From Sporopachydermia quercuum (Eukaryota): a stretch of 64,000 nucleotides of DNA. Location: NCBI GenBank assembly GCA_001599295.1, contig BCGN01000003.1, positions 1,240,001 through 1,304,000 of the forward strand. The letters run 5' to 3'. Positions 4,033-60,680 of the stretch are shown one piece after another. Each line of letters begins with the position of its first letter. Position 1 is the first letter of the stretch. Position numbers and translations under genes: made by a program. The notes under the pieces are model-generated. The model saw only the letters and a list, made by a program, of their open reading frames with translations, was not told the origin of the DNA and did not search any database.

Positions 4033-7000
4033 ATGATGGCGATGGGTGATAACCAACAACAACCTCTACAAACTAATGGGAAAGGTATGTATTGATACTT
4101 GAAGGTTCATTATTCACGTGCTATTTCAATTTACTATCTGATGGGGATTCACGTGACTTAGCATTTGATTGAATGAGGGGCATATTCTATTCTTTTGTCT
4201 GGTAAAAGACTTCTACAAGATTGATTACTAATTATAATATAGACTCTCCTGGTTCTTTGAATCATAGCTTGATTGGAAATTCCATATTGAATGCATTTAG
4301 TCGTTTGAGAGGAGACAGCTTTGAACGCTTTTCATTAAGAGATCACTTCGATGCTAATCCGACAGGATTTTCGAAAGTACCTAGTAATGAAAATGATAAA
4401 AATAATCTGCTTGGATATGAATTTAATCGTAACCACTTGAATAATCAACAAAATATTCATAATAGTATTTTGAATAGGCCGCTAGATCTTCCTGAAATTC
4501 CCTTGTTGCATTTGAATTTGAATGAAAATGAGAAGGAAAAGCCAAGCAATGTTACTTCTGATTTTTTATCACTATCGTCTTTGGCTAATCTTAATGATTC
4601 GGCTCTCGTGAAGAATCTTAATTCAAAATCTGCTGATGTTTCTATTAAAGATAAGGCATCGGTTCCTTATTTGTTGGAAGATCAGCCATTAGTTGCGGTG
4701 AAAAACAGTTCTACACCGGTGGTTCCCCCTGTTCCTGCTAATTCCAATTTGAAGGACAGTATTAAAGAGAAAACGAAGGAAGAAGCAGATGAATCCAAGG
4801 AAGAAAAGAAGAACAAGAAGAAAAGTGAAGGGAAGTCTAAGAAGGAATCCAAGAAAGCTATTGGAAGAGAACCTACGAACGCCAAACAAGAAACAGAAAA
4901 TAAAAGTAAGAATGAGGAAGGTACCAACAATAGGCCTTCCAATGAAAATCTAGGGAAGTCCAACGAATCTCTAATAGTAACTAGTATTTCGGATAATATT
5001 GTCTCTGATGAGACGAAATCTATCCGAAAATCTACTCCAACGACTGAAGAGAAATCTCGTGTTTCAGAGTTGGAAAATATAAAACAGCGAATAAATAATG
5101 ACCACAGTGATTCAGGGATTGAAAAAAGTGCTGCAAAACCAGCTACTGAAAATGATAGAAGTGCAATGAAGGAGAAAGGCCTAGAAACGGGTCTCGTGAA
5201 ACAAAAGAAGGAGAAGTTAACGGAGAAGGAAAAAGAGAAGAATGTTTTCAAAGATAACAAACATAGAGAATCTTTAATCAATAATTCACAATCTACACAG
5301 CAGCAGTCTGATGGTAAGTCTACTACAAAGCCAGGTGATAGTTCGAGAAATAGGAAAGATATTTCAAAAGAGACCAGAAACTCTTCTCCTTCGAGTTCAT
5401 CATCAACTTCTCCATCGGCAAATGCTTATGTCACGCAAGTATCCAATATACCTGTTAGCGCTTGGGCGTTACAAACGGCTAATAACCCAAGACATGTAAC
5501 GTTACAGCATGCTTTATCTAAGTTTGCTAAAGATACTCAATTCTGGAAAACTTTACGAAATCACGGAAAGTTCCTCCAGATCCTAATCGACTGGTTTGAT
5601 TATGATATAAAACATAAGCAGTACAATCATATGATATCCGTACTCAAGGTTTTACAAAAGTTAGATTTGAATAAGAAATGGCTGAAGAAATTTGATTTGA
5701 CAAGAAATTTTGAGCTGATTTCCAAATATTCAACTAATCCCGAGATCAGAGCATTAGCTAAGTCTTTCTTAGTTAGAATTGCAACTTTAGAGGCTGAAGA
5801 AAAACATATTTCTCAGGTGCCATCAACTACAAGAACTTCTTCTGTTTTTGGTATAAAGGCGAAACGACCTGAACAGAATAAAGTGACAACTTCTAAATTG
5901 TTCAAACAGATCAATAGAGAAAATGTTCCTTCAACTCAAAAGGCTACGATGAAAATAACTAAAACTCCAATCTTCAAGAAAACATCAACCGAAAAAATAC
6001 CGATTGCTAAAATCACTGAGACTAAGAAATCTGAAGGTCCTGTTCTACCTCCTTGGCATTTAAAGGACTTGTTGAGTGGTGTCAAGATCAACAGCGATGA
6101 GTCTAAGAAGGCTAAAGAGAAAGAGGAAGTATCTAAAGCTGTAGAGACTTCACCAAAGGATTCAACCAAAGTGACAGAGAATTTTAAGGGAGATGCTGAG
6201 GAAAATAAAGGTAAGGATAAAGATGGAGATAATAAACGAAAGAGAACTATAGATGGTGATGATTCGACCGTTTGGTCTACAGAACGGCCAGTTAAGAAAT
6301 TAAATCAATCAGGAATCAAGAGCATCTTATCAGTTAAACTGTCTGATATCGATAAAGAAGGAAGAAAACTTTATGGATCTACCTCTAAAGCTCGGAAGAC
6401 TGTTCGTTTCAGACCGGATCATGAATTGACTATAGTTAAACTATTTGAAAGTGACGTAAGACCTCCGCATTATCATGCAGGCTTGCTATCGGATCTCAAC
6501 AAGAATGAAGGATCTGACTTCAAACAAAAGCGTGATCTGGATGAAGATGATTCGGGTCTCAATAAAATATCTTCAGATGAAGATGTGCCATGGTATAAGC
6601 CAAAGCCATATGATATTTCGAAATTGCCCTGGGTTAATGTCTCATCTTATGAAGGAAATTCTGAGTTAAAACAAGGTAAACAATCAGTTATATCTGAAGA
6701 AGCTCAAATTCAAAAGAACCGTGAATCCAAACAATTGCCTCTTATTGTTAATTCAATTGATGACATACCAGATACCCCAAAAGAGCTTGTTGATGAAACC
6801 GATGTTGCTGTGGAGCATAAAATGATGGTACCATTTGGATCAAGCGAAGCTTTCCTTCAAGCTTTTGATGATGATTCTTATGATCCATCCTCAGATTTTA
6901 TGCAACCAGTTGTTCCTTTTGATCCTATGGTTGGAGTTTATGATGTGGATGCATTCTATAGAAACAATGAAGATTTCAGCGGAGATAGACAAAATAATGA

Positions 7001-7655
7001 ATCAGGTATGAAGTCTTTTTCTGATCCAGCACCCAGTAGAATCTCGGATAACAATGAGAAGTCGGTAGGCAAGAAACTGGAAGGAAGCAATTGGAAAAAA
7101 GATACAGTTAAACCCCTTAGTGAAATTGATTTTCAGAAAGTTATGCAAAACTTAGAAAGCTTGAAGAATGGTGTCTCTCTAAATATTCCAGCAACGAGGT
7201 CTCAGGCGGTGCCAGTTCCTTCGTTCAGCGGCACAATCGTCCCTCCTTATAATGTCGGAGCACCGGTAATGCCGTCATCTACTGATTTTCGACTTCCTGC
7301 ATCATCTGGTTCAACTGGTTTATCCTCTTCGTACGATACAATTCGCGTATTCCCTTCTCATTATAATAACAATAATAGTAATCAATTTGGATCTTCACAG
7401 ATAGGGGTAGTTGAACCATCCAGAACAGGGACTTTTCCAATGATGATACCTAACAATACTAACAATAATAATAATGATTCAAAGAACCACCGAAACAACA
7501 TTCTTCCTGACTATATCTCACTTGATCATCTGTCGAATAGAAATAAAAATTCCAAGAACAACAATAATAAGAGTGACAAACAGAGAGTAGGAACTCCGGT
7601 GTTCGGTGTACCAGTTCGAAAGGACAGAAATGCTGGAGGTTTTTTCTTCTCCTAA
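4033..7655 (+). CDS. PP1 (Glc7) regulatory subunit, Ref2/Ppn1/PNUTS-like; exons 4033-4084 and 4243-7655
   Basis: Intron 4085-4242 (GTATGT...TACTAAT...TAG) joins ATG 4033 in frame; TFIIS-N/LW-like helical domain (VLKVLQKLDL...EIRALAKSFL); SILK-like KSIL and RVxF KTVRF followed by the PhiPhi segment LTIVKLF. Confidence 0.72.
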
Positions 7656-27592: not shown

Positions 27593-28869
27593 AACCTTCG
27601 AATGAGACCCTCTGCAACATCTCCGAGATGAGACGGGATGCTAAGAAGAGAGTCTTAAGAAAGTTATAAGATGACAATTTCGAGACAATTTCGATTTCAG
27701 ATATGACAAATTGATTTATGATCAGGTCAACATTATATATGGATGAGAGTTCAAGCATTTAATTGCAATATTCTCAACCCTATGAATAGTTTGGAATGGC
27801 TTTCGGCACCTAAAAATAATCCCATGTGAGACAAGCCAAAGGGCTTGCATAGTTATGAAGATTGTGTAAAGACATGTAGAGATCGCAGATAAGATGAAGT
27901 TGTAACTATTATTGTTGGTATTACCTAGAATTCTTTCGATTTCCTCAGGATATTTCATACTCCCACGAGTTTATGAACTAGAATTGCTCAAGATTGCTTG
28001 AACCTAAAAATGCGACAATAGGCACTCTCTGCCTCATCCTCTGTCATTTCAAAGATATATTAGCCCGGTTTTCATCATGCAAAAGTTTCTCAAATTGATT
28101 TAGATTTACATAGATTTGAATTGCTCCTATTATGGTTTCTTTGAAAACCAAAGACACCTGATGCTATTTTCGCTGCATCCTTGTTGTGCCCAAACAGGTA
28201 AGAAATTAGCTGAATTGGGATTCAATTTTCATCAAACTCAACAATGCATAGTATATGCACGCAATGTTCTACACAATTCATAGGGAGCAAAGAATAGAGT
28301 TCAGTTTTTTAGCTAATGTCAGTTTCTAGCTACAAGTGAAAGATGCAATGACCTTGTATTATGACATCGTAAGTAGAGCAAAATTGATGTACACATGAAT
28401 ACACAGTTTACATTAATATGGGTTGATAAACGTACTAGATAGTTTGATGAATTATTGAAATCACCATTTCTTGGTATATATATTAGAATATTAGAGGACG
28501 TATAAAATACAGATCTAACAAGCAAGTAATGTTGATGAAAGACAACAAATGACAACAGTAAAATCAATGACTTAATCTGACAAGCAACTGCCAGCAATTG
28601 AGTAGAAGGAAATGAGACAACTTAGCTGCCAAATAAATTCGTAATATTGCAGTTACAATTAATTCAAATTTGCAACTCATGTAAACATCTCTATACTTTA
28701 GTCCCAAAGTGAAAATAGAATAATAAAAGGTAATAATTAATGGTAGTAAAGTTGCTCTTTGTGATATTCTCGTTCAACAAAACCTGCTGTCAACTAACCG
28801 ACTCGTGAGGGATAAGATATTGAAAATGACCTCCCCATGTTATTCAATTGAAGAACTCTGATTACAAAT

Positions 28870-29466
28870 TTAAACCTGAGTCATGTTGGGGATTCCGACC
28901 TTTGGAGCTCTGGCTGAACTTCTGGAAGGCAAGCCAAAGGCACCGTTTCTGAATACATTGACAACAGAAATAACCAAAGTTGCTAGGAAAATAAAGAAAG
29001 AGAAGTAAAGGAAGGCAACGGTAGCTTGAGCCTTTCTACATCTGTCGGTAGATCCTTGAGTGACGGCATTCCCATCCAGATAGCTGCGGTTGGTGCAGGA
29101 GTGAACACGGATGGCAACGGCCAAGGCAGTTGCACCAGCAAAGGAGAAAACAACTGACAAAAAGTCTAAGATAGATAAAATAACAGGCCAGGCTAAAGCT
29201 TGGAAGAATCCAGCAACGATGTTGTAGAAAAATCCAAAAACAAGACCCCAAACAGCGGTGAAAATGCTATTACAGTTAGTATATCATCTCTGAAATAAGG
29301 AAGAGTGTTAATTGCTTGGAATGCATAATCTAAGTACTTACACAAAGTTCACTTGAGGATTGGTCTTATGTTGAGTAGCCCTAAGACTGGCACTTAAACC
29401 AAGAACAATAACAAGGAAAACGAAATTCGTTGTTCTTAGGGCAATATCGGTAATTGTAAAACCCAT
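28870..29466 (-). CDS. NCE102: Eisosome/MCC tetraspan MARVEL protein; exons 29466-29342 and 29266-28870
   Basis: Intron 29341-29267 (GTAAGT..ACTAAC..TAG) joins MGFTITDIALRTTNFVFLVIVLGL..NPQVNFVIF to AIRVHSCTN..RCRKAQATVAFLYF. Confidence 0.93.
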
Positions 29467-31099
29467 TTTCTTTTATAATGTGCTGTGTTGTGTTGTGTGA
29501 TGTGTAATGATAGTGTATATCAATACAAGCTGTTGTTGATTTTTATAATCTGATAAACTTGAAAAATCTATTGGTTAGATACAAAATTCATATGAATTGT
29601 TTGTTGTTAGAAAGCACTATACATATAAAAACCAGGGAACCGGTATGAAATTGTGAGAAAAGGAGAAAAAGAAAAAGAAGGAAACATTTCCAATATAAAT
29701 GAAGTATTTATTATCAGTTTTAATAAAAGGTTTGAATAAGCAAAACAAAAACAACCGTTTTAAGATTAACATTTCACTAAAACTGCAAATTATGAAAGCT
29801 TAGCGTGTGTTTCAGGTTTACCAATGTTTCCGCACAAAAAAGTTTATTATGGTGGTGAATCTATGTTGTATTTACGTATAAATCTCCACCAGTTTTTCAT
29901 TTTAGAAGAGTGAAGGAGTGAATGAGATAAAAGATGAGTATTCTAAAGAGCTTTGAATCAGCATTGATTAAGTCAAATTATAAAGGTTTGAGAGACAGAA
30001 TTAAGAATGGAGAGAAGATTTGATTCGTTCTTTACCTACTTATTGCTAAGTTGAAATCTATAACCCCTGGAGAAGCGTTATATTCGTTTCTGTATGATGC
30101 AACTCCAAACTATATCAGTATTATTATAGAATAAAGAATCTATTATAGAATTAATTGGTTTTAAACCCATTGCTGCACTGCACTCGCCAATGAAAGAATC
30201 ACCACCGTTAAAACTCTGAAGTGTTCTGAAGAGTTAATGTTTCTTCTTTCGCTGTCGCCTTTACCAATGACGGCGAAAAAGTAACAATATGTGCCTTGAA
30301 GCTTCCTATTAAAGTCACTCACACATCATTTTAGATTTCTGTACTTAACAGACAAGGCCTTCGTTACGAATACATATATATGTTCAATGACTTCATAGAA
30401 AAGGAGTTCCTTTATGTTAGGTTAGGTCTTGAAATACATTTTTTTGTTTTGATATATACGAAGAGAAGAAAACTTGAAAAAGCCTTGTAGTTACTTATTT
30501 GGTGGGCGAGCAGATTGATCGCAATGGAAAGTACTGTTTTTTTATTATTATCGAATAGACGGTTTATTTGTAAATTTACTCATCCTGACCATGGTCTACC
30601 CACTGATAACGGCAATTCTAACATATTCAATAGGCTGATATTGGTAGTGGGAAATGGATATTTCTATTTCAAGACAATGATTAAATGTTATTTTTAAGAT
30701 TTATAAACAGCACCGCAAGTAAAATATATGTTTAAAATATATGTTCAGTCTATAAAGACTGAATAGCTTAACATTGAATGAAAGAAGAAAAGAAAAACCT
30801 CTTTGGTCGTGAATGAGGTTTATGTCAAAATTGAAATGGCCATTGAAAGAGTCAATCAGTATGAGATCACCTTTTAAGCTTCACTACCTGTTTCTGTGAC
30901 TTCAATTAACTCAATAGTAATCTGTAAATGTTCCTTCAATGTTTATTGAAACAGAAACAATGAAATATATTGATGTGTGGTTATCATTCCTAACCGTTCC
31001 TTTCAATATCGGTGGCAGATGAAATGACTATACAAACTATTTGCATCATCAACTGTAATAGATTCTTAGGTTAATTAGGTAAGCATCACAGTTGTTAAA

Positions 31100-32085
31100 G
31101 ATGTACATCAGTATACTCGCTTACTTCGATCGGTTGGTTTAGTAATGATAAAGCAGAGTCTAGGAAAGGGGCTCTTCGTTTGAGCCGTATAATCTAAAGT
31201 TTCCCTTCATCTCCGCTTCAGGTTCGCTGTTCCTATACTAATATTCGAGACAGTTTTTCCGCTTTAACCAAATTCGACTGATTATAAGAGGAGAGGGTCA
31301 GGTGAGCAGTCGGCTTTAAAATTATCTTAGAGCCGGCTCCAATCGTTACCGCTGTCCTAACCCTTCCTATGTCTCTTGCACACTATAGCAATAGTATATT
31401 TTATTGAATCCACCTGCTAACATACGTTCTTTCACTTGATAACTTTGTGGTCAGATGTTTGAATCCCCATTGCTAACTCCCTCATCATATTCTTTTCTGA
31501 CATCATACACCCTACTTTGTGATTAAATTCTCTTGTTTTCTTTCAACCCCAATTTGCCTTCTTTCCTAATAGGGGAAGGTGACGAATCTCACCTTACAGA
31601 GGTTGCTCATTCTAGATGACCAACTCAATTGACGTTAGGTAGGACATCAACCCACAGAATACTTCAAGGAAATCAATGGCTTTGATGATTTACTTCACCC
31701 ATTGAGTATTTTAGAACTTGCAATAGTAGAATATTCGAATAATTGTTTTCGTTGTTTATCACTATAATTCACCTGCGACCTTCAAGCGCTAGGGAGAGGT
31801 AGAGACCAAGACAGTCTCTACAAGATATGCAGTATGATGCAGGCTTCGTGTACGCAACAACAACCCAAGATGATCCCTTGTGATAAGGTTCAGTCAGTCA
31901 TGCAGAGTAGTAAGTAAGGCTCCGAGAGTGCCGGATTGGTATACCTAACAAGAGTGGTACGGTTCTGGAAAGAAGACTTGAGCTGTTTAGAAGTCGGAAG
32001 GATGAGATGGTTGGTGAAGAATGTAGAAGGGAAAAGATGGTGATAGTTTACTATTACTATGATGGGAGACTTATTTGGTATAAAT
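31100..32085 (+). ncRNA. Putative telomerase RNA (TER); ends approximate
   Basis: Template TCCTAACCCTTCCTA 31355-31369; boundary helix 31299-31354; long-range pairing 31173-31228 with 31981-32020; P6.1-like AGAG-TGGTACGG-TTCT 31951-31966; no ORF. Confidence 0.65.
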
Positions 32086-32676
32086 TGGTTGGTAGTATAT
32101 TTTGAAGAATAGTTTTGATGCTTTTGTTCGATTTATATGATCTATGCTGCAAGAGAAACATTGATTATGCCCGACTATGCAACAAAATCCCCTAGGTGCA
32201 TTTCCAATAGCCTTTATGTAATAATATGAGCAAATCTGTGGATCATGTTGTTTTGAAATACTCTATTATCATATAGTTCGATAAGAATTTATTAAAAATA
32301 ATTGCATATGGCAACTTTCTATTTTTCTCTTCTAAGGAAGTTCTGCCGCTGATACTAGCAAATTATTGTCTCTATCCCATACTCCCTAGCATTAACCCCA
32401 CACTTCCTAATATTCTCGAGACCCTCGTCAAAAGACCTCATGGATGGAATATGTCGATGTCACGCAAATGACAAGCTCTGTCAAATCATTTACGTCACAC
32501 TTCTCAATCCACTCCTGACAATCTTTGTATATTCGCAATCTCAATTACCTTCTTCAAACATGAACAACTATCAATCGCCATCTCATTTGTTCTAGCAATG
32601 ATATCCAATTCAGATGATATTCTCACATCTCATGTTCTCAGACAATTGATGAATCATTTATAATATTTTCCTCACA

Positions 32677-34767
32677 ATGGGAGAAAAAAGTATCATCAAA
32701 AGGCAGTTGAAAAGCCTTTTGGATCTACTAGACCAGCAAGCAGCTCCAGTTTTGTCATTCCCATTATCATCTAATGACGATACTGAGAAAATAAATAGTG
32801 AAAGGATAGAGGCGAACAATTATAAGGTCTCCCTTCAGAATGTCTATTCAGTTCTCCATAACTCATTTAATCCTTCCTCGGGAAGAACTATCAAACACAA
32901 GAACACATTGTCTCTGGTCACCAAAGTACTCCAAGTTCTCAAATCGTGTCATACTGATCCAATTCTCAATGGTGATCGTTCGTCAGATGATTCATTCGTT
33001 CTTCAGAATGTGATATTAGCTTATTGCTCTGTCGTAATTTACTACTACTTAGTGGAAGACTTGCTAAAGGAAACTCTGCCTGTATCAACAGACATTTACT
33101 ATTGGAATGATGTTCAGTCTTCATATCTTGGATTATCTCTCTACTCTCTACAGACTATTCCCTTAAGAATAAAAAAGCTTTTGCTGGAAGTGTATAATGA
33201 GAGCATTGCAATTGACGTTGATAATAAGTTATTAAGTATCGAGAGAACTGACAATGTCACTACCAAAGCTTTAAAACAAATCAAAAATGTTATACGTCGT
33301 TGGGTTGAAGTATTCAAATCTGTCATTGATAAGAATCAAAGAATGATCAAATCGACATCCAAATTCGTTTTATCCTCAATTGAAGGGAATACCCAAATTG
33401 TCATGACAAGTCTAAAGGAAAGCCCAAAATCAGCTAATTCTGCCTCTAATTTATACCATGATTCTTTATTTTCAGTCAACCATAAACGACCAAGAATAGT
33501 AGTTCCGTCTATACTACAGTTGATTCTGTCACCGCAAATGATAATTGAAAAGGAAGTTAGGACCAATCAAGAAACACTAGTGAAAGCAAGAGATCAAAAG
33601 GCTGAAGCTTTGGGAAAGTTGGTTCAAAGTTCCCCTTCAGAGCTTTCGTTGTTCGAGAGTTGGCAAATAATCGAACAGTGCACTAAAATAATGAATGAAA
33701 TATTTGAATGGTCTTCAACATCGCCAAGATATATTACAATCAATTCCGAGGACGATTTTCAATCAAAATGTGACTCGTTGTTGGTAATCATCAGCAATTG
33801 TATTCCAGAATTCAATTCTCAGCATCAAGAAATACTTTGTAAATGTGGTAAACCTAGTAGGCTTATNAGATATTGGCCTGGTCTTATCATTACAACTTTC
33901 ATATCAACAATCGTTGTTCCATACGTCTTCAACAACTGGAAATTAATTTTGCAGTGGGTCAAAATCAATTTGGTTGATACTGTCAAATTATTCATTGAAA
34001 ATTGGATCATTGATCCAAGTGTCAAGATATTGCACACTATTCGTCATGATGATAATTCTCGTATTGCTTTGATATCAAAAAAAGCTTTACAAGCAGATTT
34101 GGAGTCTTTAGAAAGAATGGTGATTGATTTCACCTCTGACGCTCAATCGGGGAGTTTACTCCATCAAACTCCGGGCTGGGAAAATCAAATCAAATCAGAT
34201 ATTCAACAAGGTGATTTGACATTGCTAATGAAACCATATGAAGAACAAATAAAAACACCAGTGACAAGCCTAATCAAAGGGTCGTTGATCAGATCGTTAT
34301 TAATTCAGCTACAGAAAACAAAAGTTGACGTTGATACTGCGGTTTCTGGTATTGATCAGTTATTGAAAAGCCAAGAGTTGGTGTTTGGTATAGTTGCTAT
34401 TCTACCAAGTTCTGTTATATCTTTGTATTTGGTGCAGTGGTTGTATGGAATTTTTGTTACTGGCAGATCTGTTAGGGGAAATGGATTGAGACGTGAAGAA
34501 TTGAGTATGGTATTAGGAGAAATTGAGAAATGTCTTATTTCTGGTATGACTAGTGAACAAAAAACTCAACGGTTGGATTTTAAGAATGAAGGGCTTTTAT
34601 TATGTGAGATAAATGTATTAAGAGATATCAGTACTAAAGTGATATCTAAATCTAGAAGAAGTAAATGGTTTGATGATTTGAATGACTTAGAGGATTTCCA
34701 ATTACCTGTTGATGTTAGATTGAAGGCTGTTCAAAGGATATGGCATGTATATAGGAAGTATTTATAG
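32677..34767 (+). CDS. NCA2: Nuclear control of ATPase protein 2 (mitochondrial outer membrane)
   Basis: GKPSRL.RYWP, NWIIDP...TIRHD, SLERMVIDF, LLIQLQKTKVD...GIDQLLKSQELVFG. Confidence 0.92.
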   Translation: MGEKSIIKRQLKSLLDLLDQQAAPVLSFPLSSNDDTEKINSERIEANNYKVSLQNVYSVLHNSFNPSSGRTIKHKNTLSLVTKVLQVLKSCHTDPILNGDRSSDDSFVLQNVILAYCSVVIYYYLVEDLLKETLPVSTDIYYWNDVQSSYLGLSLYSLQTIPLRIKKLLLEVYNESIAIDVDNKLLSIERTDNVTTKALKQIKNVIRRWVEVFKSVIDKNQRMIKSTSKFVLSSIEGNTQIVMTSLKESPKSANSASNLYHDSLFSVNHKRPRIVVPSILQLILSPQMIIEKEVRTNQETLVKARDQKAEALGKLVQSSPSELSLFESWQIIEQCTKIMNEIFEWSSTSPRYITINSEDDFQSKCDSLLVIISNCIPEFNSQHQEILCKCGKPSRLXRYWPGLIITTFISTIVVPYVFNNWKLILQWVKINLVDTVKLFIENWIIDPSVKILHTIRHDDNSRIALISKKALQADLESLERMVIDFTSDAQSGSLLHQTPGWENQIKSDIQQGDLTLLMKPYEEQIKTPVTSLIKGSLIRSLLIQLQKTKVDVDTAVSGIDQLLKSQELVFGIVAILPSSVISLYLVQWLYGIFVTGRSVRGNGLRREELSMVLGEIEKCLISGMTSEQKTQRLDFKNEGLLLCEINVLRDISTKVISKSRRSKWFDDLNDLEDFQLPVDVRLKAVQRIWHVYRKYL

Positions 34768-35222
34768 GGGGTGTTCTGTTCATTTTTGGCAAGCACCAAC
34801 TTAGTAGCCTATGATATGGTATGAATATCTAACTGAATGATCTACGGGTTAATATACTATTTGCTCCTGATTAAGTGTTAGTCGCTTGAGTTTGTTTTTT
34901 TCTTTTATTATAGTAAAAGTATATGGGAACAATGACATCGTCTATAGTAACATAATACAAGGGCAAACCATAATATACGATGAATCATATGAATTATTGT
35001 CACTATACTATACAATAGGTAGTTCAATGAGATCATAGGTTAGTATCTCTCTTCTCTCTTCTAGTAATGTATGTACAATATAATATGATATGATGAGATG
35101 ATCAGTATCATCCTTTTTCTCCTTTTGCATAACATCACCTTCGTATTGCCAAGTTCTTACATTGATTCTTACTATCTGTTAACTTTCTTCTCACTTCCAT
35201 TAAAATAAATCTGAACCTCTTA

Positions 35223-36392
35223 CTATTTCCACTTACCCAAATACACCAAACATTCTTTCAACCTTTTCAACCCTTCTATCAAATCAGCTTTTTTATTAGC
35301 ATACCCAATTCTGATATAACCAGGATTCCTCATAACTTCACCAGGAACTACCAAACAACTATACTTTTCAACTAAGACTCTAGAAACCATCTCAGTATCA
35401 TCTTCATTAACAATTCTCATAAATGCTGTTGTGCCAGCTTTCGGTTCAACCAGTTTGATATTGCCACGGCTCTGCTCAACAAAATCAAGCAGAATCCGAA
35501 GATTCTCCCTGCAGTTCTTATTGTTATATTCTATAAGCGTTTCCCAACTTTCAAGGGCCCATGAACTTATTAAGTCGCTGATGAAACTAACACTGATCGT
35601 ATTATAGTCTCTATGGCTCAGCGCATCTTCAATGAAGCTTCCATCGTGAGAGGCAATCCAGCCTAATCTCAAACCAGCTAAATTAAACGGCTTCGACATA
35701 CTTCCCGTTATAATTGCCTTGTCGTAGAGAAGAGCTAAAGATTTTGGCTCTTCCATGCCTTCTGGTAATGAATGAAATAAAGGTCTGTATACTTCATCAC
35801 ATAAAACATAAATATCAAGCTGTTTAGCGATAGAGACAATTTGCTGCAAAGTCTCATTTGATAAAACCGAACCAGTAGGATTATTAGGATTATTCAGAAC
35901 TATCAATTTAGTTTCTTTCCTTATTAATGATTTGAGCCTTGTCAAGTCAACGTCATAATCATGATTGGGATCCAAGTCTAAAATATCTAAATCTGCACCA
36001 AAAGTTGTTGCTAATGTTTGCAATTGTTGATAAGCAGGTGATACTGAAATCACATGATCATTTTTATTTATCACTGTGTAGAATACAAGGAAATTTGCAC
36101 CAATGCAACCATTAGTAATTACAATATTATCTGGTGTGATTTTGCTGTCTTCTTTATCTGCGTGGTAGTTGATCATATTAGCAACGGTATTTCTAAGTTT
36201 ATTCGAACCTGGAATCGAGCCATAACCCAACCGAGTATTGGTTATTTCATCAATAGGAATAGGTTTACCGATAATTGAAGATACGTCGTTAAGAGAAAGA
36301 GAATCACAACATGTTTCGGCGATGTTAACTGAAACCTTCGTTTCATACTTATCCATCCATTGTTCTACACCGAATGGTTCTTGGTTGACCAT
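35223..36392 (-). CDS. PLP-dependent class I/II aminotransferase (FxVEQWMD/ETCC subfamily)
   Basis: ATG at 36392 (MVNQEPFGVEQWMDKYE); NNPNNPTG, DEVY, GSMSKPFNLAGLRLGW with the PLP Lys. Confidence 0.88.
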   Translation of the reverse strand: MVNQEPFGVEQWMDKYETKVSVNIAETCCDSLSLNDVSSIIGKPIPIDEITNTRLGYGSIPGSNKLRNTVANMINYHADKEDSKITPDNIVITNGCIGANFLVFYTVINKNDHVISVSPAYQQLQTLATTFGADLDILDLDPNHDYDVDLTRLKSLIRKETKLIVLNNPNNPTGSVLSNETLQQIVSIAKQLDIYVLCDEVYRPLFHSLPEGMEEPKSLALLYDKAIITGSMSKPFNLAGLRLGWIASHDGSFIEDALSHRDYNTISVSFISDLISSWALESWETLIEYNNKNCRENLRILLDFVEQSRGNIKLVEPKAGTTAFMRIVNEDDTEMVSRVLVEKYSCLVVPGEVMRNPGYIRIGYANKKADLIEGLKRLKECLVYLGKWK

Positions 36393-45710: not shown

Positions 45711-46438
45711 ATGATTGTAAGGACATCATTCATCAAACCAATACCTGGTTTGACAACAAAATTTATTGCATCTAGACAGATTTCAATACTGTCATCTTTA
45801 GGAGAGAAGCAAACCCCAAAGGAATATCAACAAGTTAAACTGAAAAGAACTCTAAAGTATGTATACACATAACAGCATGTTGGCATTGGGACAATAAATG
45901 TAGCATTCATTCACTGAATGAAAGTTTCAATAGGATCCGCCAGTTTCAAAAACATAAGAGGTTTTTTTTATTCATTGTCTGAATCATGTACTAATGTGAT
46001 TATAGTGTCCCGCAACATATCTTGCTAGATGTTATCTCCGATGTTGCAAGTTATGAAAAGTTTCTTCCTTTCTGTGAAGAGTCAGTGGTGACATTGGAAG
46101 ATGATAATGGTAAACCTGCCCAAGCTATTTTGAGAATTGGTTGGAAAGGAATTGAAGAGTCATATAAAAGTAAAGTGACAGTTCTGGAAGACTCTGTGAC
46201 AGCTGTATCTCTAACACATCATTTATTTTCTCATTTGTATACTAAATGGATTGTGAGAGAGAACGCTAGTAGAAGCGGAGCAAGTGATGCGGAGCTGGAT
46301 TTACAATTTCAGTTTAAAAACAACTTGTATAATCAAATCACCAAATCATTTGGCACTACTTTTAGTGAGGTCATGGCTAGATCATTCGAAAAACGAGCAA
46401 AGGAAGTTTATGCTCAATTGCAAAACAGACAGTCATAA
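45711..46438 (+). CDS. COQ10: Coenzyme Q-binding START protein; exons 45711-45856 and 46006-46438
   Basis: Intron 45857-46005 (GTATGT..TACTAAT..TAG) in frame; mitochondrial presequence; VISDVASYEKFLPFC, ESYKSKV, FEKRA. Confidence 0.88.
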
Positions 46439-47534: not shown

Positions 47535-49780
47535 ATGTCAGGCTCCGATTCATTATTTGGTGCTGTTGACTCCGAACAGGACCCTTGGTCATTACCAAGT
47601 GCGAAGATCAAAAACGACACCTTGTCAAGGTTAAGTACTCATACTAGCAATTTAACAGGTTATAACGTTTCAACGATTTTGAATGAAATCGAGGTTCCTG
47701 GATCATATAAACAAGCATGGGATGATGCTGCCTCTGATCCAAGCAGTGCCACTGTGTCAACATCGGATTTAGAAAACGTTCTCTCGCGATTAAATCTATC
47801 AGAAGACACTTTGACCGCTATTGATGACATTTTATCCGAGCATGGAATCGGATTAGATGGGAGAGTTGATAGAGGCACTTGGTATAGTATTTTGGGCCTT
47901 GCTACAATTGCAAGAGACCTTAATCTTACTGGTGACGAGATCTCAATTGATATCCTTGAATCCAGGAAAAACAACCTACCTGCTTTGAAAATTGGGCCCA
48001 AGAAGCAAGAAGGCGTACGAGCGGTTGTAAGCAATAACCCCCCCACTGCTGGCGCAGCGAATCCATGGGGCGTTGGCCTTATCCAGTCTGACCCTTTGGC
48101 CGTTGGTGCTACAGTCGAAGAATCACAAGCTCAGCGTGAATGGGACGAAGCCGATGCAACTCATAATGCGGAAATCTCATCGGCTTTCAACCCTTTCAGT
48201 CGTGATTTGATTAAAGTTTCTGTTGTGCCTGAAAAATCAGGAATTATCTTTCGCCATGTTAACTATTTGATTGAAAGGATTGGGTTTACTGAAACAGATG
48301 ATCAACAGAAAGTGATAAGAAGATATAGCGATTTTTTATGGCTTCTTGAAAGTCTCCTTAAGAGATATCCTTTTAGAATGATCCCAGAATTACGTAAGTA
48401 TCATTCCTACATTGATTTTATCATACGCTATTATTTGCATATGTACATGTGTCTATTTATGCATTTAGAACTCTGTTACTAACATTACTTATCTCTATAG
48501 CACCAAAGAAATTTACAGGTTAGTATTTTGCTAAATGGTTTCTCTTCCAAAAAGTAGTTAAAATAAATATGCATTTGTGGCTGTGATTACCTGAAGTGAA
48601 ACCAAACACTTGCTTTTATTCGATTGGTAACCAAAATAGTTATTCTAACACAATGCATAGTAGGTGGTTCTATGGAATCTGTTTTTCTAGAAAGGCGACG
48701 TAAAGGATTATCACGGTTTCTAAACATTCTCACAAAGCATCCAATTCTGTCTAGGGAGACCATCGTTGAAGTGTTTTTAACAATCCCTACTGAGCTTGCA
48801 ACCTGGCGAAGACAGGCGACAATTGATTTAGCCGAGGAGTTTGCAGGAAGGAAAATATCGCGGTCTTTTATCGAAAGATGGAAAACAGAGGAGGAATCAA
48901 TGTGGGTGGAATGCTCAGAAAGAATCAAAGCTGCATCTGATTCATGGAAGTATGTACTTTATCGCTGAGGAGAGTTAGGATTAGATCAGGCATAAACATA
49001 AGCATATGTATATGCCTAATTATGTGAAGTAAATTTATTAGTATATGGTCAATCAGTTCAAGTGATTGAACCAATAGTATTCTACCTACATACTTCTATC
49101 CTATTCATCGTTCATGATTCACCTATTACTAACAATATTTCTTATCACACAGCCGTGTATGCATTCTTATTGAAAGAATAGCCAAAAGACAGGAGTCTAT
49201 CGCTCAGGACTATGGCAGATTCTCTCAAGCGTTACAGCTATTTACAGGAACAAGTCCCTATGTGCCTTGTCAGAAATTAGACGAAATTCAAACAGGAATA
49301 CATTCCGCGTCTTTACATATAGATAATGCCCAAACATTGCTTGCTGATGAAAGCAATGGTAATGATGCTGTACTCGAAGACTTCAGGACGTATTATGATT
49401 ATCTTGTATTATTGAAAAACTTGTTCGATCGCTATCTCGAAGATAGAAGCAATGATCCTGTGCCTAAGCTTGCGAGAAGAATTGAAGTCTATAAAGGAGA
49501 ATTGGATCGTTTAAGCAATAAACCTGATGTTAAAGGTAATGAATTAGAGAAACTAAAACAGTCCATTGCTAAAGATGAAAATGCTATTTACGAAAGTACC
49601 AATAGAGCATGGTTGATAAAAGAGTGCATCAGAACTGAATTCAGTTTATTCCAAACCACTTCTGGGCTTATAAGTAAAATTCTACAAGAATGGTCAGCCG
49701 ATAGGTCGAAATACGGTGAATTGGGCTCAGAGAATTGGAATAAGCTGGTGAATGAGATTCAAGATTTACCTATTCGATAG
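47535..49780 (+). CDS. MVP1: PX-BAR sorting nexin Mvp1/SNX8; exons 47535-48393, 48501-48518, 48661-48949, 49153-49780
   Basis: Three GT-AG introns with branch sites keep frame; PX motifs GIIFRHVNY, VIRRYSDFLWL, YPFRMIPELPPK, FLERRRKGLSRF; BAR end WLIKECIRTEF. Confidence 0.9.
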
Positions 49781-50514: not shown

Positions 50515-51794
50515 TTATGCTATTTTCTTATTGACATTGGTATACCCGATTCCCTTGATAAGCATCAACAATTCATCTTCTGAATCCTCTACCTCTCTCA
50601 ACACTATTTCTTGTCCCATTAATGTTCTCACATCCCTACATAACACAACAAAACTTTCATCAATAACCTTTGAACCAATTCTAAGTCTTCCAATGTCTTC
50701 TCGGCCTAAAATCATAAATACTGTTGCCAATGACAATTGAGAACCTCTACAAACACATCCATTGTAACTAACTTCCTGTAGTACATATTTTGCTATTGCC
50801 GTGCCTAGATCTTCTGGTACAGAACCCGGTTCACTCACTCCTTCAGCAGCATAACACCAGCCTTCTTTAGTTTCTGCAACAACAGTAATACCTGAGCCAG
50901 GACTCAAGCCCGATTCTTCTCCTCTGGCGACATCTGAGTAAATCATAGTATCACACCCAGTGGATTTCAAGACACTTCTCGCGGATTCTATCAGTCTATT
51001 TACAGTACTTGGCGATATTCTTGTCGAGTATGCAATACCTCTAACTCGATTGATTTTAGGTGTTTTCAATGCATGTAATGTTGTAGGTGTCGTGATGAGG
51101 TGGTCTAATTTGAAATGGACTTCTCCTCCTCCCAAAGGAGCCGACCCTCTTTTAACAATTCTCAGTTCCGGGCTTCTAATACCAAACTTCTCAATGACAG
51201 GGAACAGCGCCGTTCTTATATAATCGACTCCCAGATCTACTGAATTATTGGTCACACCATTAAGAACGATTGAAAAAGGTTTCTTGGAAAAAGGCGCTAG
51301 ATATAAAAGAGGCTCAATAAAATATCCTACGCTTCTTGTCTTAGGGCAATTGTGAGTATGAGAACCTCCAGTGATAAGTCCTGGTCGATAGATCACTGAT
51401 GAACCCGTATAGGAGATTTCTATCACGGCACCATTTGTCACAGCCTCTAGAAGTCTGAGAAACGACACTTCATAATCTAGAGAGTAGATGTTAGTAAAGC
51501 AAGGATGCAATGAATGATCTCACTGTTGTTGTAGAATAATCACATAATGTCTATCAGCTACATTTGTGTGTAGCCATGTATTCAGATATATATGGTTCAT
51601 GCAAAATACTTCTTTCAGCGACAGCTACCAATTCCCCTCAATCTCACCACATTTCCAAACAACCACTTACCTCTCAAACCAGGTTCTATATCGTCCGCTC
51701 TTATTCCTTCTATCTTAATGGGGTTACCAGATAATGTAGCCAATATAAGTCTCAGACGGAAGTTCTGATGAGTTTTGAACTTCAAAATAGCCAT
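50515..51794 (-). CDS. RCL1: RNA 3'-phosphate cyclase-like 18S processing factor; exons 51794-51671 and 51476-50515
   Basis: NFRLRLILATLSG...PGLR|DYEVSFLRLLEAVTNG via intron 51670-51477; GIGYTNVNKKIA C-terminus. Confidence 0.95.
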
Positions 51795-58056: not shown

Positions 58057-59434
58057 CTACTGAAACATCTTCTTCTGAATTTCAAATCGATCATTAAATG
58101 GACATACAACGTCAAACTGTCGAGAATGTACCTCGCTTGATTCTAAATGAGATTTGACAATGTCTGCCAAAGACTCAATGAATTCTGCATCGCCATTCAT
58201 AGATTCTGCTCTCATAATCTTCTCTGGTTTCTTAGCCGTCTTAATCAGTTCAATGTCAATCTCATGCAATGTTTCAATATGATCCGATGTAAATGCAATA
58301 GGTACAATGATTAAATCATCATCGCATTTCTTTTGATAGTTATCAACAACCTTTTGAGTTTGAGGACCTAACCATGGCTTAGGACCAACCTGAGATTGCC
58401 AACACAACATGTATCGATTAGAGAACTCCAGTTCCTGCATAACGGCATATGCAGTAGCTGCAACTTCACCTGAATACGCGTCACCTAAATTAACGATCTC
58501 CATAGGTAGAGAATGAGCAGAGAAAAGGATCACTGCATTCTTTCTGGCTATAGGATCAGCAATTGTATCAAGCTTTTCCTGAATATGTTTCGCTACTACT
58601 TTGACAAATCCTTTGTGAGTAGGCCATCTGTCAATGAAACTCCATGAAATAGTTCTGTCAGGGTCGATTTCAGTACTTCGTTTATACAGCTCGTTAAAAC
58701 TGCTTCCAGAAGTTGACCAGCTGTATTGAGGATACTGAGAAAATGCAACAGCTCTTGTTATACCGTCAGATTTCATTTTAGCTAGAGTATCCTCAGTCAA
58801 AGGTTTAGCATATCGGAATGCAACATAAGGCTTATGAGGAGCTGTTGATGGATTTATTTTATCTAGTATCTTACAAGTTTCTTCTACTTGGTATTCTGAC
58901 CATTTTCTGATTGGACTGCCTCCGCCAATAGCTTGGTAGTACTTTTCAATCTTAGGTGTTCTCACAGTGGTGATGAATTTAGCAATTAGGTTTTGAAATC
59001 TACCGAATGGAATCAAATCTCCATCGCTCTTTGTTTGTTAGATGACATTGTAATCAAATCGCTGAAATGACTAATATACTGGTACTAAAATAGCAGATAG
59101 TATCCAATTCTAAAAGCGAATATTTTACTTACAAATAGTCTGAATAGAAAATCTCTAGTTTCCGCAACAGTTGATGGACCTCCCATGTTCATGAATACAA
59201 TTCCCTGTAATCGGTAGTAGTTAGTATCGTCTGGTATTCTGAGCGAGCGAGTGGATTAGCGCTGTTTGCGGGATTCCAATCTTCATATCTATTATCGTTA
59301 CTTACTGTTCCTTTAGATGAGTCCATACATCTCTGATATCTGCTGAAGCATCTAATGAACTGAGCTGACTTCGAGACTGAGCTAGAAACTCCGAATTGTC
59401 TCATTATAATCACTGGTCTCNTAGTGAAATTCAT
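58057..59434 (-). CDS. HEM15: Ferrochelatase; exons 59434-59306, 59204-59133, 59028-58057
   Basis: Introns 59305-59205 and 59132-59029 give KGT|GIVFMNMGGP...FRLF|SDGDLIP; GGGSPI, FSAHSLP, QSQVGP, FTSDHIETLHEID. Confidence 0.95.
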
Positions 59435-60680
59435 GTAATATGTTTCTTTTCAAGTCTATCAAATACGTTCAACAGTTTCTGCTATTACCTGCTGTTATTA
59501 CTGCTAGGATAAAGTCTAGTAGAACAATTGGCAAGTACACTACTACGGGAATGTCCCAGAAACTCCTGTGCTGATTCAAACTTGTCAATTGGAACGTAAA
59601 CGCTTGATTTCCAGTCTCTTGATCTCACTTCTCTATCAATCCTGTCTATTCTCTAAGTTGCTGTTCTATCTATTCGCAATTATACTGTCCAGTTCAATCA
59701 CCAAAAGTTCCATCGCCATGCACTCACCACCTTTCACAACCAGAAAACTATCAATCAAACAATCATACAACCGCTTTCTTCCGGCAATTGGTTCCTCAAT
59801 TTTAATCCGAGTTTCCTTGTCCTTCTTTCCTTTTCTCCAGTTGTTGTTTATCACTGCCTTTCCGAGAACGCAAGCTTATCTCCGGTGTTTGACACAGTGA
59901 ATTAATAATGGTTTTTTTTCTTCTTTAACAAAAACTGGTCTTGAGTAAGGTTTTAAAGTTGGCTCGGTTGCCGAATTAGATAGAATTTAATGATGTAATC
60001 AGTTAACGGCAATTGTTACTGGTTGCTTTTCGCTGGACAGGATGAAGGAATATTTGAAGCTAATCATAGAGATCTGAGGATATGGTAAAAGCGAATTGAC
60101 TTTCTTGGCGTTGAATTGAATGAACTTTCAAGTTTATTCTTCTTCTTTTGATTGGTATCCGAAAAATAAATGAAATTGTAGGTTGGATAGATGAGAGATA
60201 GATTTTGCGCAAAACTTTCCGTTATTTGGTTATTATTTCCGGATCTACTCAGATGTTTAATTGATGACGTAATNTATATTTTATCAGAAAATATATTGAT
60301 TATATAATCAAATATTTTTATGAGCGCTTAGTGCGCAAGGTGAAATATTATTGATTGTGCATAGAATTCGAAAGGAGGAGAAAGGAATTGATCTAAGACA
60401 CCACTAACAGAAGTAAACAACAGAAAGCTCAGCAGGAATTAAAGTATTGTAAATAGTGAGTTTATAATCATCAGCACCTATATATTGCGGGATCTGAATT
60501 ATTGGTACTTCACATTGGTGTGAATGGTTCAGGATCTATGGTTTTATTCATAGGATGCTTTTCAGTCATTGGCGANCGACATCTTTGACTTCATTATTGA
60601 TCGTTGAGTTATTCAACGGATATTAAGCAACGAGTAGGATCAACATCCGTGTTCAATTATAGTTTCAGATTTCACTCAAA

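Follow-up and report, generated by a model that had tools for sequence, protein, structure and literature searches.

Telomerase RNAs (TERs) diverge so rapidly that annotated examples are still missing from most budding-yeast lineages other than Saccharomycetaceae, Candida and Yarrowia (excerpts of PMC6115765). In Yarrowia lipolytica, the TER was located with a 15-nt query of 1.5 repeats that matched one intergenic locus; most reads end about 950 nt from the RNA 5' end, an imperfect Sm site lies near nt 920, and TAACCC is conserved in 10 aligned Yarrowia-clade templates (Cervenak et al. 2019; excerpts of PMC6746865). The motif 5'-TTNNNNAGGG-3' (TT-NNNN-AGGG) occurs in the telomere repeats of 12 of 13 Yarrowia-clade species (PMC7857110), and the spacer is AGGG in some species of this clade (PMC12449055), both according to the passages cited.

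In this work, we describe a stretch of about 1 kb in a 64-kb window (the whole stretch of DNA that was analysed, 64,000 nucleotides). The island at about 31100-32110 on the plus strand is a plausible, not a demonstrated, candidate gene for the telomerase RNA of the species, a reading that we hold tentatively and put somewhat short of an even chance. The coordinates of its features are collected in Table 1. Like the Y. lipolytica TER as portrayed in the excerpts of PMC6746865, the candidate is a single intergenic locus with 1.5 copies of a 10-nt TT-N4-AGGG repeat, has TAACCC within its template-like element, an inferred size of ~1 kb, and an imperfect Sm-like site near its 3' end. Sequence similarity to that RNA is not detectable, and synteny is not shared either: in the same excerpts, the Yarrowia TER gene is flanked by FRE2 and FRE3 homologues. 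Moreover, the Yarrowia TER is backed there by RNA-seq, deletion and covariation, whereas the candidate is known from sequence alone.

With S. cerevisiae TLC1 and the other Saccharomycetaceae TERs, as they appear in the excerpts of PMC6115765, the candidate has in common that a long RNA gene of Pol II type occupies a gap without ORFs, and that the template is followed by a U-rich region and then a 3' Sm site. It differs from them in having no Rfam match and in a short, regular template as opposed to the irregular TG1-3 type, and the Ku and Est1 arms are not recognisable in it. The Rfam family of the Saccharomycetaceae TERs is presumably Sacc_telomerase, and TLC1 of S. cerevisiae lies in what we take to be a PDX3-CSG2 synteny, differing from the NCE102-NCA2 setting of the candidate. 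Like the TER core of the Pezizomycotina, fission-yeast and vertebrate type (Qi et al. 2013, PMC3592445, in excerpt), the candidate has a template that would encode a TTAGGG-like repeat. We found no literature linking TER to NCA2 or NCE102.

Table 1 Features of the candidate locus, with positions counted from the first letter of the window.
Feature	Position	Strand	Remarks
Near copy of the template-like 15-mer, TCCTAACCGTTCCTT	30988..31002	+	13/15 identical (2 mismatches), 367 nt upstream, same strand
Proposed RNA body, GC-rich ORF-free island	31081..32080	+	Ends unmapped, roughly 31100 to 32110
G-rich AGGGUCAGG-type segment	31293..31302	+	Paired by the MFE fold with 31356-31365, the 5' part of the template; prediction only
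Stable hairpin GUCGGCU.../...AGCCGGC	31309..31337	+	11-12 bp with extension, 17 nt upstream of the template
Template-like 1.5 repeat UCCUAACCCUUCCUA (DNA TCCTAACCCTTCCTA)	31355..31369	+	Period 10, 5-nt terminal repeat UCCUA
Two U/C-rich tracts, UCUCUUGUUUUCUUUC and CCUUCUUUCC	31529..31566	+	Both could address the purine tract 31968-31982
Perfect 7-bp hairpin AAGGUGA / UCACCUU	31576..31595	+	Arms 31576-82/31589-95
Perfect 8-bp hairpin GUAGAGAC / GUCUCUAC	31799..31821	+	Arms 31799-806/31814-21
Purine-rich 3' region (GGAAAGAAGAC, GAAGGGAAAAGAUGG)	31968..32044	+	GC skew +0.58; complementary to several upstream pyrimidine tracts
Sm-like site AUUUUGA	32099..32105	+	AU4-6GR, at the 3' edge of the island

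The window consists of AT-rich DNA from a budding yeast, with a GC content of 0.334 outside and 0.379 inside open frames (frames of at least 100 aa masked). A preliminary description, made from the letters and their open reading frames, had placed the candidate between NCE102 and NCA2, and this placement was confirmed: the left neighbour is an NCE102-like MARVEL-domain gene on the minus strand (exons 29466-29342 and 29266-28870), and the right neighbour is NCA2 at 32677-34767 on the plus strand (Pfam PF08637, E 4e-92). The two genes are divergently transcribed, and no other gap between ATG-ORFs of at least 120 aa in the window is as long as the 3.2 kb that separate them, which leaves room for a 1-kb gene and promoters. 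The intron of the NCE102-like gene (29267-29341 on the minus strand, 75 nt) carries GTAAGT, TACTAAC (29281-29275) and TAG, all canonical, and gives the splice-signal consensus of the species. Intron or spliceosomal-cleavage signals in the candidate were rejected: the one GTAAGT, at 31910, is neither preceded by an Sm site nor followed by TACTAAC, and both TGCTAAC motifs (31415, 31471) are without an upstream 5' splice site. A transposon or repeat origin was likewise rejected because the stretch is single-copy in the window, no second copy having been found elsewhere in the 64 kb.

The island stands out by its base composition. In the 23,228 bases left after every stop-to-stop frame of at least 100 aa had been masked, the best 1-kb window, 31081-32080, reached a GC of 0.406 and the next independent one 0.367. 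The best 600-nt window had 0.412 against a mean of 0.344 (sd 0.025), and the GC of the island is above that of the open frames. When the gaps between ATG-ORFs were compared unmasked, the candidate came only narrowly first, with 0.412 vs 0.407 and 0.397, and the GC-rich runner-up gaps contain long open frames without an ATG. The locally GC-richer segment of the preliminary description is accordingly real, and this enrichment is the sole part of the original observation that goes beyond chance. That the segment is free of ORFs was borne out as well: no ATG-ORF of at least 40 aa occurs on either strand in 30697-32440, and the longest stop-to-stop frame in the stretch has 80 aa.

ATG-less long open frames were also observed in other apparent gaps, at 50518-51519(-), 58060-59037(-) with 59192-59449(-), 4206-7652(+), 49133-49777(+) and 45995-46435(+), all but the last of which are probably exons of intron-split genes. 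The ATG-ORF of ferrochelatase spans only Pfam profile positions 109-316, and several genes, ferrochelatase included, seem to be intron-split or begun upstream of their first ATG-ORF. Since such ATG-less frames lie in the gaps, a simple ORF list under-annotates this genome. Single N bases were noted at 18 scattered window positions (e.g. 67, 245, 501, 2581), and an ambiguous base within NCA2 gives an X in its translation.

A coding-like GC content without an open frame could also be left by a decayed protein-coding relic that kept its composition after frame loss. The GC of the island is similar to or above coding GC, and NCE102 and NCA2 are adjacent here; in S. cerevisiae, several genes presumably lie between them. 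Against a relic, the open frames reach at most 80 aa, Pfam returned 0 families at cut-off for the nine small frames of the stretch (one chance-level match, E 0.038), and phmmer returned 0 matches among 1.84 billion representatives for the longest frame, the only one searched. We regard a relic as improbable.

Searches with RNA models were equally blank. Rfam telomerase families were absent at E up to 10 in 28000-35500 and 31000-32250, no family of any kind was found in the stretch at E up to 10, no gathering-level Rfam match occurred across the whole window, and a tRNA search returned none. TERs of yeasts outside Saccharomycetaceae escape Rfam-type models, according to the excerpts of PMC6115765, so the blank is expected for divergent TERs and is only weak evidence.

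The 1.5-repeat template-like sequence claimed at first sight is present: TCCTAACCCTTCCTA is 15 nt long and holds 1.5 copies of a 10-nt unit, from which GGGTTAGGAA would be copied; GGGTTAGGAA and TTAGGAAGGG are rotations of one predicted repeat. Short TTAGGG-like repeats have been reported for deep-branching yeast lineages. The predicted TTAGGAAGGG fits the TT-N4-AGGG telomere class of the Yarrowia clade, as this class is given in the passages of PMC7857110, and its AGGA spacer resembles AGGG. The assignment as a template is putative and circular. Counts in the window do not single the element out: GGGTTAGG was seen once vs 0.81 expected, and TTAGGAAGGG with at most one mismatch four times vs 2.9 expected. 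In simulations (period 6-12, overlap of at least 5), TT-N-AGGG-class 1.5-repeats arose 1.1 times per 64 kb, with at least one in 66% of 200 simulated windows, and the real window has a second one, inside an ORF at 48184. Taken alone, template-likeness is weak evidence. In the folding prediction, the template had a mean unpaired probability of 0.22 vs 0.39 across the stretch. Since a working template must be single-stranded, a template that is predicted to be mostly paired counts against the telomerase RNA reading.

The near copy upstream (Table 1) likewise has the form of a 1.5-repeat of period 10. Apart from the template, it alone in the 64 kb matches with at most two mismatches; the next match, with 3 mismatches, falls within the EF2 coding region. 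Local alignment of the 300-nt flanks of both 15-mers found only a shared 14-mer, and 9% of 300 shuffles scored as high, which makes the near copy only marginal (P 0.09). Chance may account for it; alternatively, it may be a promoter element bound by a telomere-repeat-binding factor, or it may belong to a longer RNA. With up to 2 errors allowed, words like the predicted unit are about 3-4x enriched on both strands in 30900-32150, where 3 G-strand-like and 4 distinct C-strand-like sites stand vs about 0.7 expected; among them, G-rich mimics were noted at 31159, 31293 and 31570. This enrichment may reflect purine and pyrimidine tracts.

Two same-strand copies of the 15-mer (30988, 31355) within 370 nt, and telomere-like words enriched on both strands, count in favour of a different reading of the interval: it may be an ordinary, extended divergent promoter or other regulatory DNA serving NCE102 and NCA2, with the 15-mers bound by a TTAGGG-family factor of Myb type (of the Tbf1, Tay1 or Teb1 kind) and with a GC rise that has no RNA function. 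In other yeasts, TTAGGG-like sites in promoters are bound by proteins of the Tay1/Teb1 type, as stated in the passages of PMC12449055. For such DNA, however, a kilobase richer in GC than coding sequence is on average is unusual here, no other ORF-free 1-kb window exceeding 0.367; the 15-mer does not recur in the window's other promoters; and the full TTAGGG is absent from both of its copies. We consider regulatory DNA unlikely, yet a serious contender.

Folding gave no support to a structured RNA over the stretch as a whole. The plus strand reached an MFE of -258.4 kcal/mol vs -256.5 +/- 8.7 for 40 shuffles (z -0.21), and the minus strand a z of -1.18 (40 shuffles); local 120-nt z values on the plus strand averaged -0.03 inside the stretch vs -0.24 outside. 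This absence of a fold-stability signal also speaks for regulatory DNA. The only markedly stable local element in the stretch was this hairpin at 31309-31337, the 120-nt window at 31260 giving z values of -2.6 (+) and -3.4 (-), and the hairpin region 31260-31380, stable on both strands, gives no strand preference. It is a candidate boundary-associated hairpin. A helix had been described as ending exactly at the 5' side of the template; a short one of at most 3-4 bp does abut it (31305-09 with 31351-54), whereas the solid hairpin of 11-12 bp ends 17 nt upstream.

All strings quoted in the preliminary description were found where it had placed them, including those of the two ends, TCTTCGTT (31173-80) with GGTGAAGA (32013-20) and TTCATCTCCGCTTC (31206-19) with GAAGTCGGAAGGATGAG (31990-32006). 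The claimed pairing of the ends fared worse, since the best duplex between the 5'-terminal 180 nt and the 3'-terminal 170 nt had an energy of -66.5 vs a shuffle mean of -66.5 +/- 5.7, and 45% of 500 shuffles equalled it. The purine-rich 3' region includes these terminal pairings, and their energy is no better than that of shuffles. Several perfect hairpins had also been noted, and the two of at least 7 bp exist, but two per kb against 0.89 per kb window-wide is not beyond chance, as 12.7% of 300 shuffles reach two (P=0.13). Similarly, the P6.1-like hairpin is present as one strict instance (4 bp, loop NUNGN; at 32071, all A-U), in contrast to the TER core of PMC3592445 as excerpted, and it occurs at the background rate of 0.35 per kb per strand. 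In budding-yeast three-way junctions, P6.1 was not found, according to the same excerpts.

The tract at 31530-44 is 80% complementary to 31968-82, 420 nt apart, and the purine tracts 31968-82 and 32026-40 are complementary to U/C-rich tracts at least 420 nt off. That the U/C-rich tracts at 31529-31566 might form a pseudoknot or triplex component is speculative. No compact triple-helix pseudoknot was found downstream of the template in the stretch, and no convincing three-way junction or CR4/5-like domain was found there. Overall, the structural arguments advanced at the outset are at chance level.

The remaining feature is the Sm-like site. On the plus strand of 30500-32700, AU4-6GR occurs only at 32099, against a window rate of 0.48 per kb per strand, and AUUUUGA lies just past the 3' edge of the island, by about 60 nt. 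It is imperfect because no purine precedes AUUUUGA. Budding-yeast TERs have AU4-6GR near the 3' end, and the candidate has AUUUUGA in the corresponding place relative to the island, the 3' end of the RNA itself being unmapped.

A GC island without a coding signal would equally suit a non-coding RNA gene, or a stable transcript, other than telomerase RNA, the template-like element being coincidental; chance template-like sites are common, at about 0.017 per kb. On the other hand, Rfam offers no matching family, and for a given island, the chance that a template, its placement within the 5' third and a 3'-edge Sm-like site all coincide is roughly 1-in-50 to 1-in-500. To our knowledge, few other classes of structured RNA of ~1 kb exist in yeasts. 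Another kind of RNA is, in our view, rather unlikely.

We then considered the organism and its telomeres. The closest database relatives of its proteins reach 33% identity for NCA2, 91% or less for EF2 and 81% or less for lipoyl synthase, and the organism's own proteins were absent among the matches of the protein searches; the lineage seems to be without a sequenced close relative in protein databases. NCA2 is extremely divergent (33% at best), while EF2 is ~90% identical to that of many yeasts. In a tree of EF2 and lipoyl synthase, the organism falls between Dipodascales and the Babjeviella/Wickerhamomyces/Saccharomycetaceae group, with a UFboot of only 75. This tree holds 14 named yeasts plus the window over 1206 columns; its taxa are the yeasts with both proteins among the named matches, and the remaining matches were left out.

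No telomere-like array is present in the 64-kb window. Two tandem units of the predicted repeat were met at 10 metagenome loci, each with 2-3 copies within unrelated DNA (GC 0.38-0.64), and none of the 10 is a terminal array of the unit. A natural array ~92% like six units (L006:1940-2120, likeness 80) had no match in the three DNA contig sets of the species, which does not prove absence. As a telomere repeat, the 10-mer was not found in the literature for six of its ten rotations, the matches listed being primers and unrelated uses; two rotations combined with 'telomer' gave unrelated matches at most, in a search that covered main texts. Five rotations were absent from the main texts of review or analysis papers. 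Yeast repeats tabulated in the supplements of PMC7857110, PMC12449055 and PMC10100673 may bear on the claim.

In weighing these results, only the sequence anatomy is solid: a GC island devoid of ORFs, 1.5 copies of a repeat that belongs to a plausible telomere class, and an Sm-like site where the island ends on its 3' side. The uniqueness of the non-coding GC island in the window, the single Sm-like site at its 3' edge and a predicted repeat of a class published for deep-branching yeasts favour a telomerase RNA. Chance-level structure, template-like sites at about one per window and a fold without a stability signal weaken it. The prior that a 64-kb window holds the one TER of a genome of ~17 Mb, a size taken from contig totals, is roughly 0.4%, and the 23 kb of ORF-free DNA would hold a template-like site by chance with about 100x that probability; by our own rough estimate, such a site would fall in the single GC-outlier kilobase in about 1/23 of cases. 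The GC outlier, the strand and 5'-third placement with a 3' Sm-like site and the documented repeat class push toward telomerase RNA, while the absent fold signal and a template predicted to be paired bring it back to the tentative level given above; the likelihood ratios used are likewise our own rough estimates. A strong TER claim is not yet justified for the island.

If the island is a telomerase RNA, RNA polymerase II would make an RNA of ~1 kb, and the telomerase reverse transcriptase would copy 5'-UCCUAACCCUUCCUA-3' (31355-31369), adding GGGTTAGGAA repeats. As the template begins and ends with the same 5 nt, UCCUA, the newly made DNA end would be able to re-align for another round. Copying would be limited by the hairpin at 31309-31337 or by the short helix beside 31354, and the RNA would be stabilised at its 3' end by an Sm ring assembled on AUUUUGA (32099). 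A more elaborate version, which we think highly improbable, is that the island is the TER of a lineage between Dipodascales and the crown clades, with a previously unreported 10-nt repeat TTAGGAAGGG, and is doubly self-regulated. Under such control, the near copy at 30988-31002 in the promoter would let a double-strand telomere-binding protein tune TER transcription, and the internal G-strand mimic at 31293-31302 would keep the template covered up to the assembly of the enzyme.

If true, the telomerase RNA reading would provide a TER from a lineage in which TER is unannotated and which has no sequenced close relative, predict the telomere repeat of the species, and add one more data point to the transition from TTAGGG-type to Rap1-type telomeres. 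Were the highly improbable, doubly regulated version to hold, the TT-spacer-AGGG telomere type would extend beyond the Yarrowia clade.
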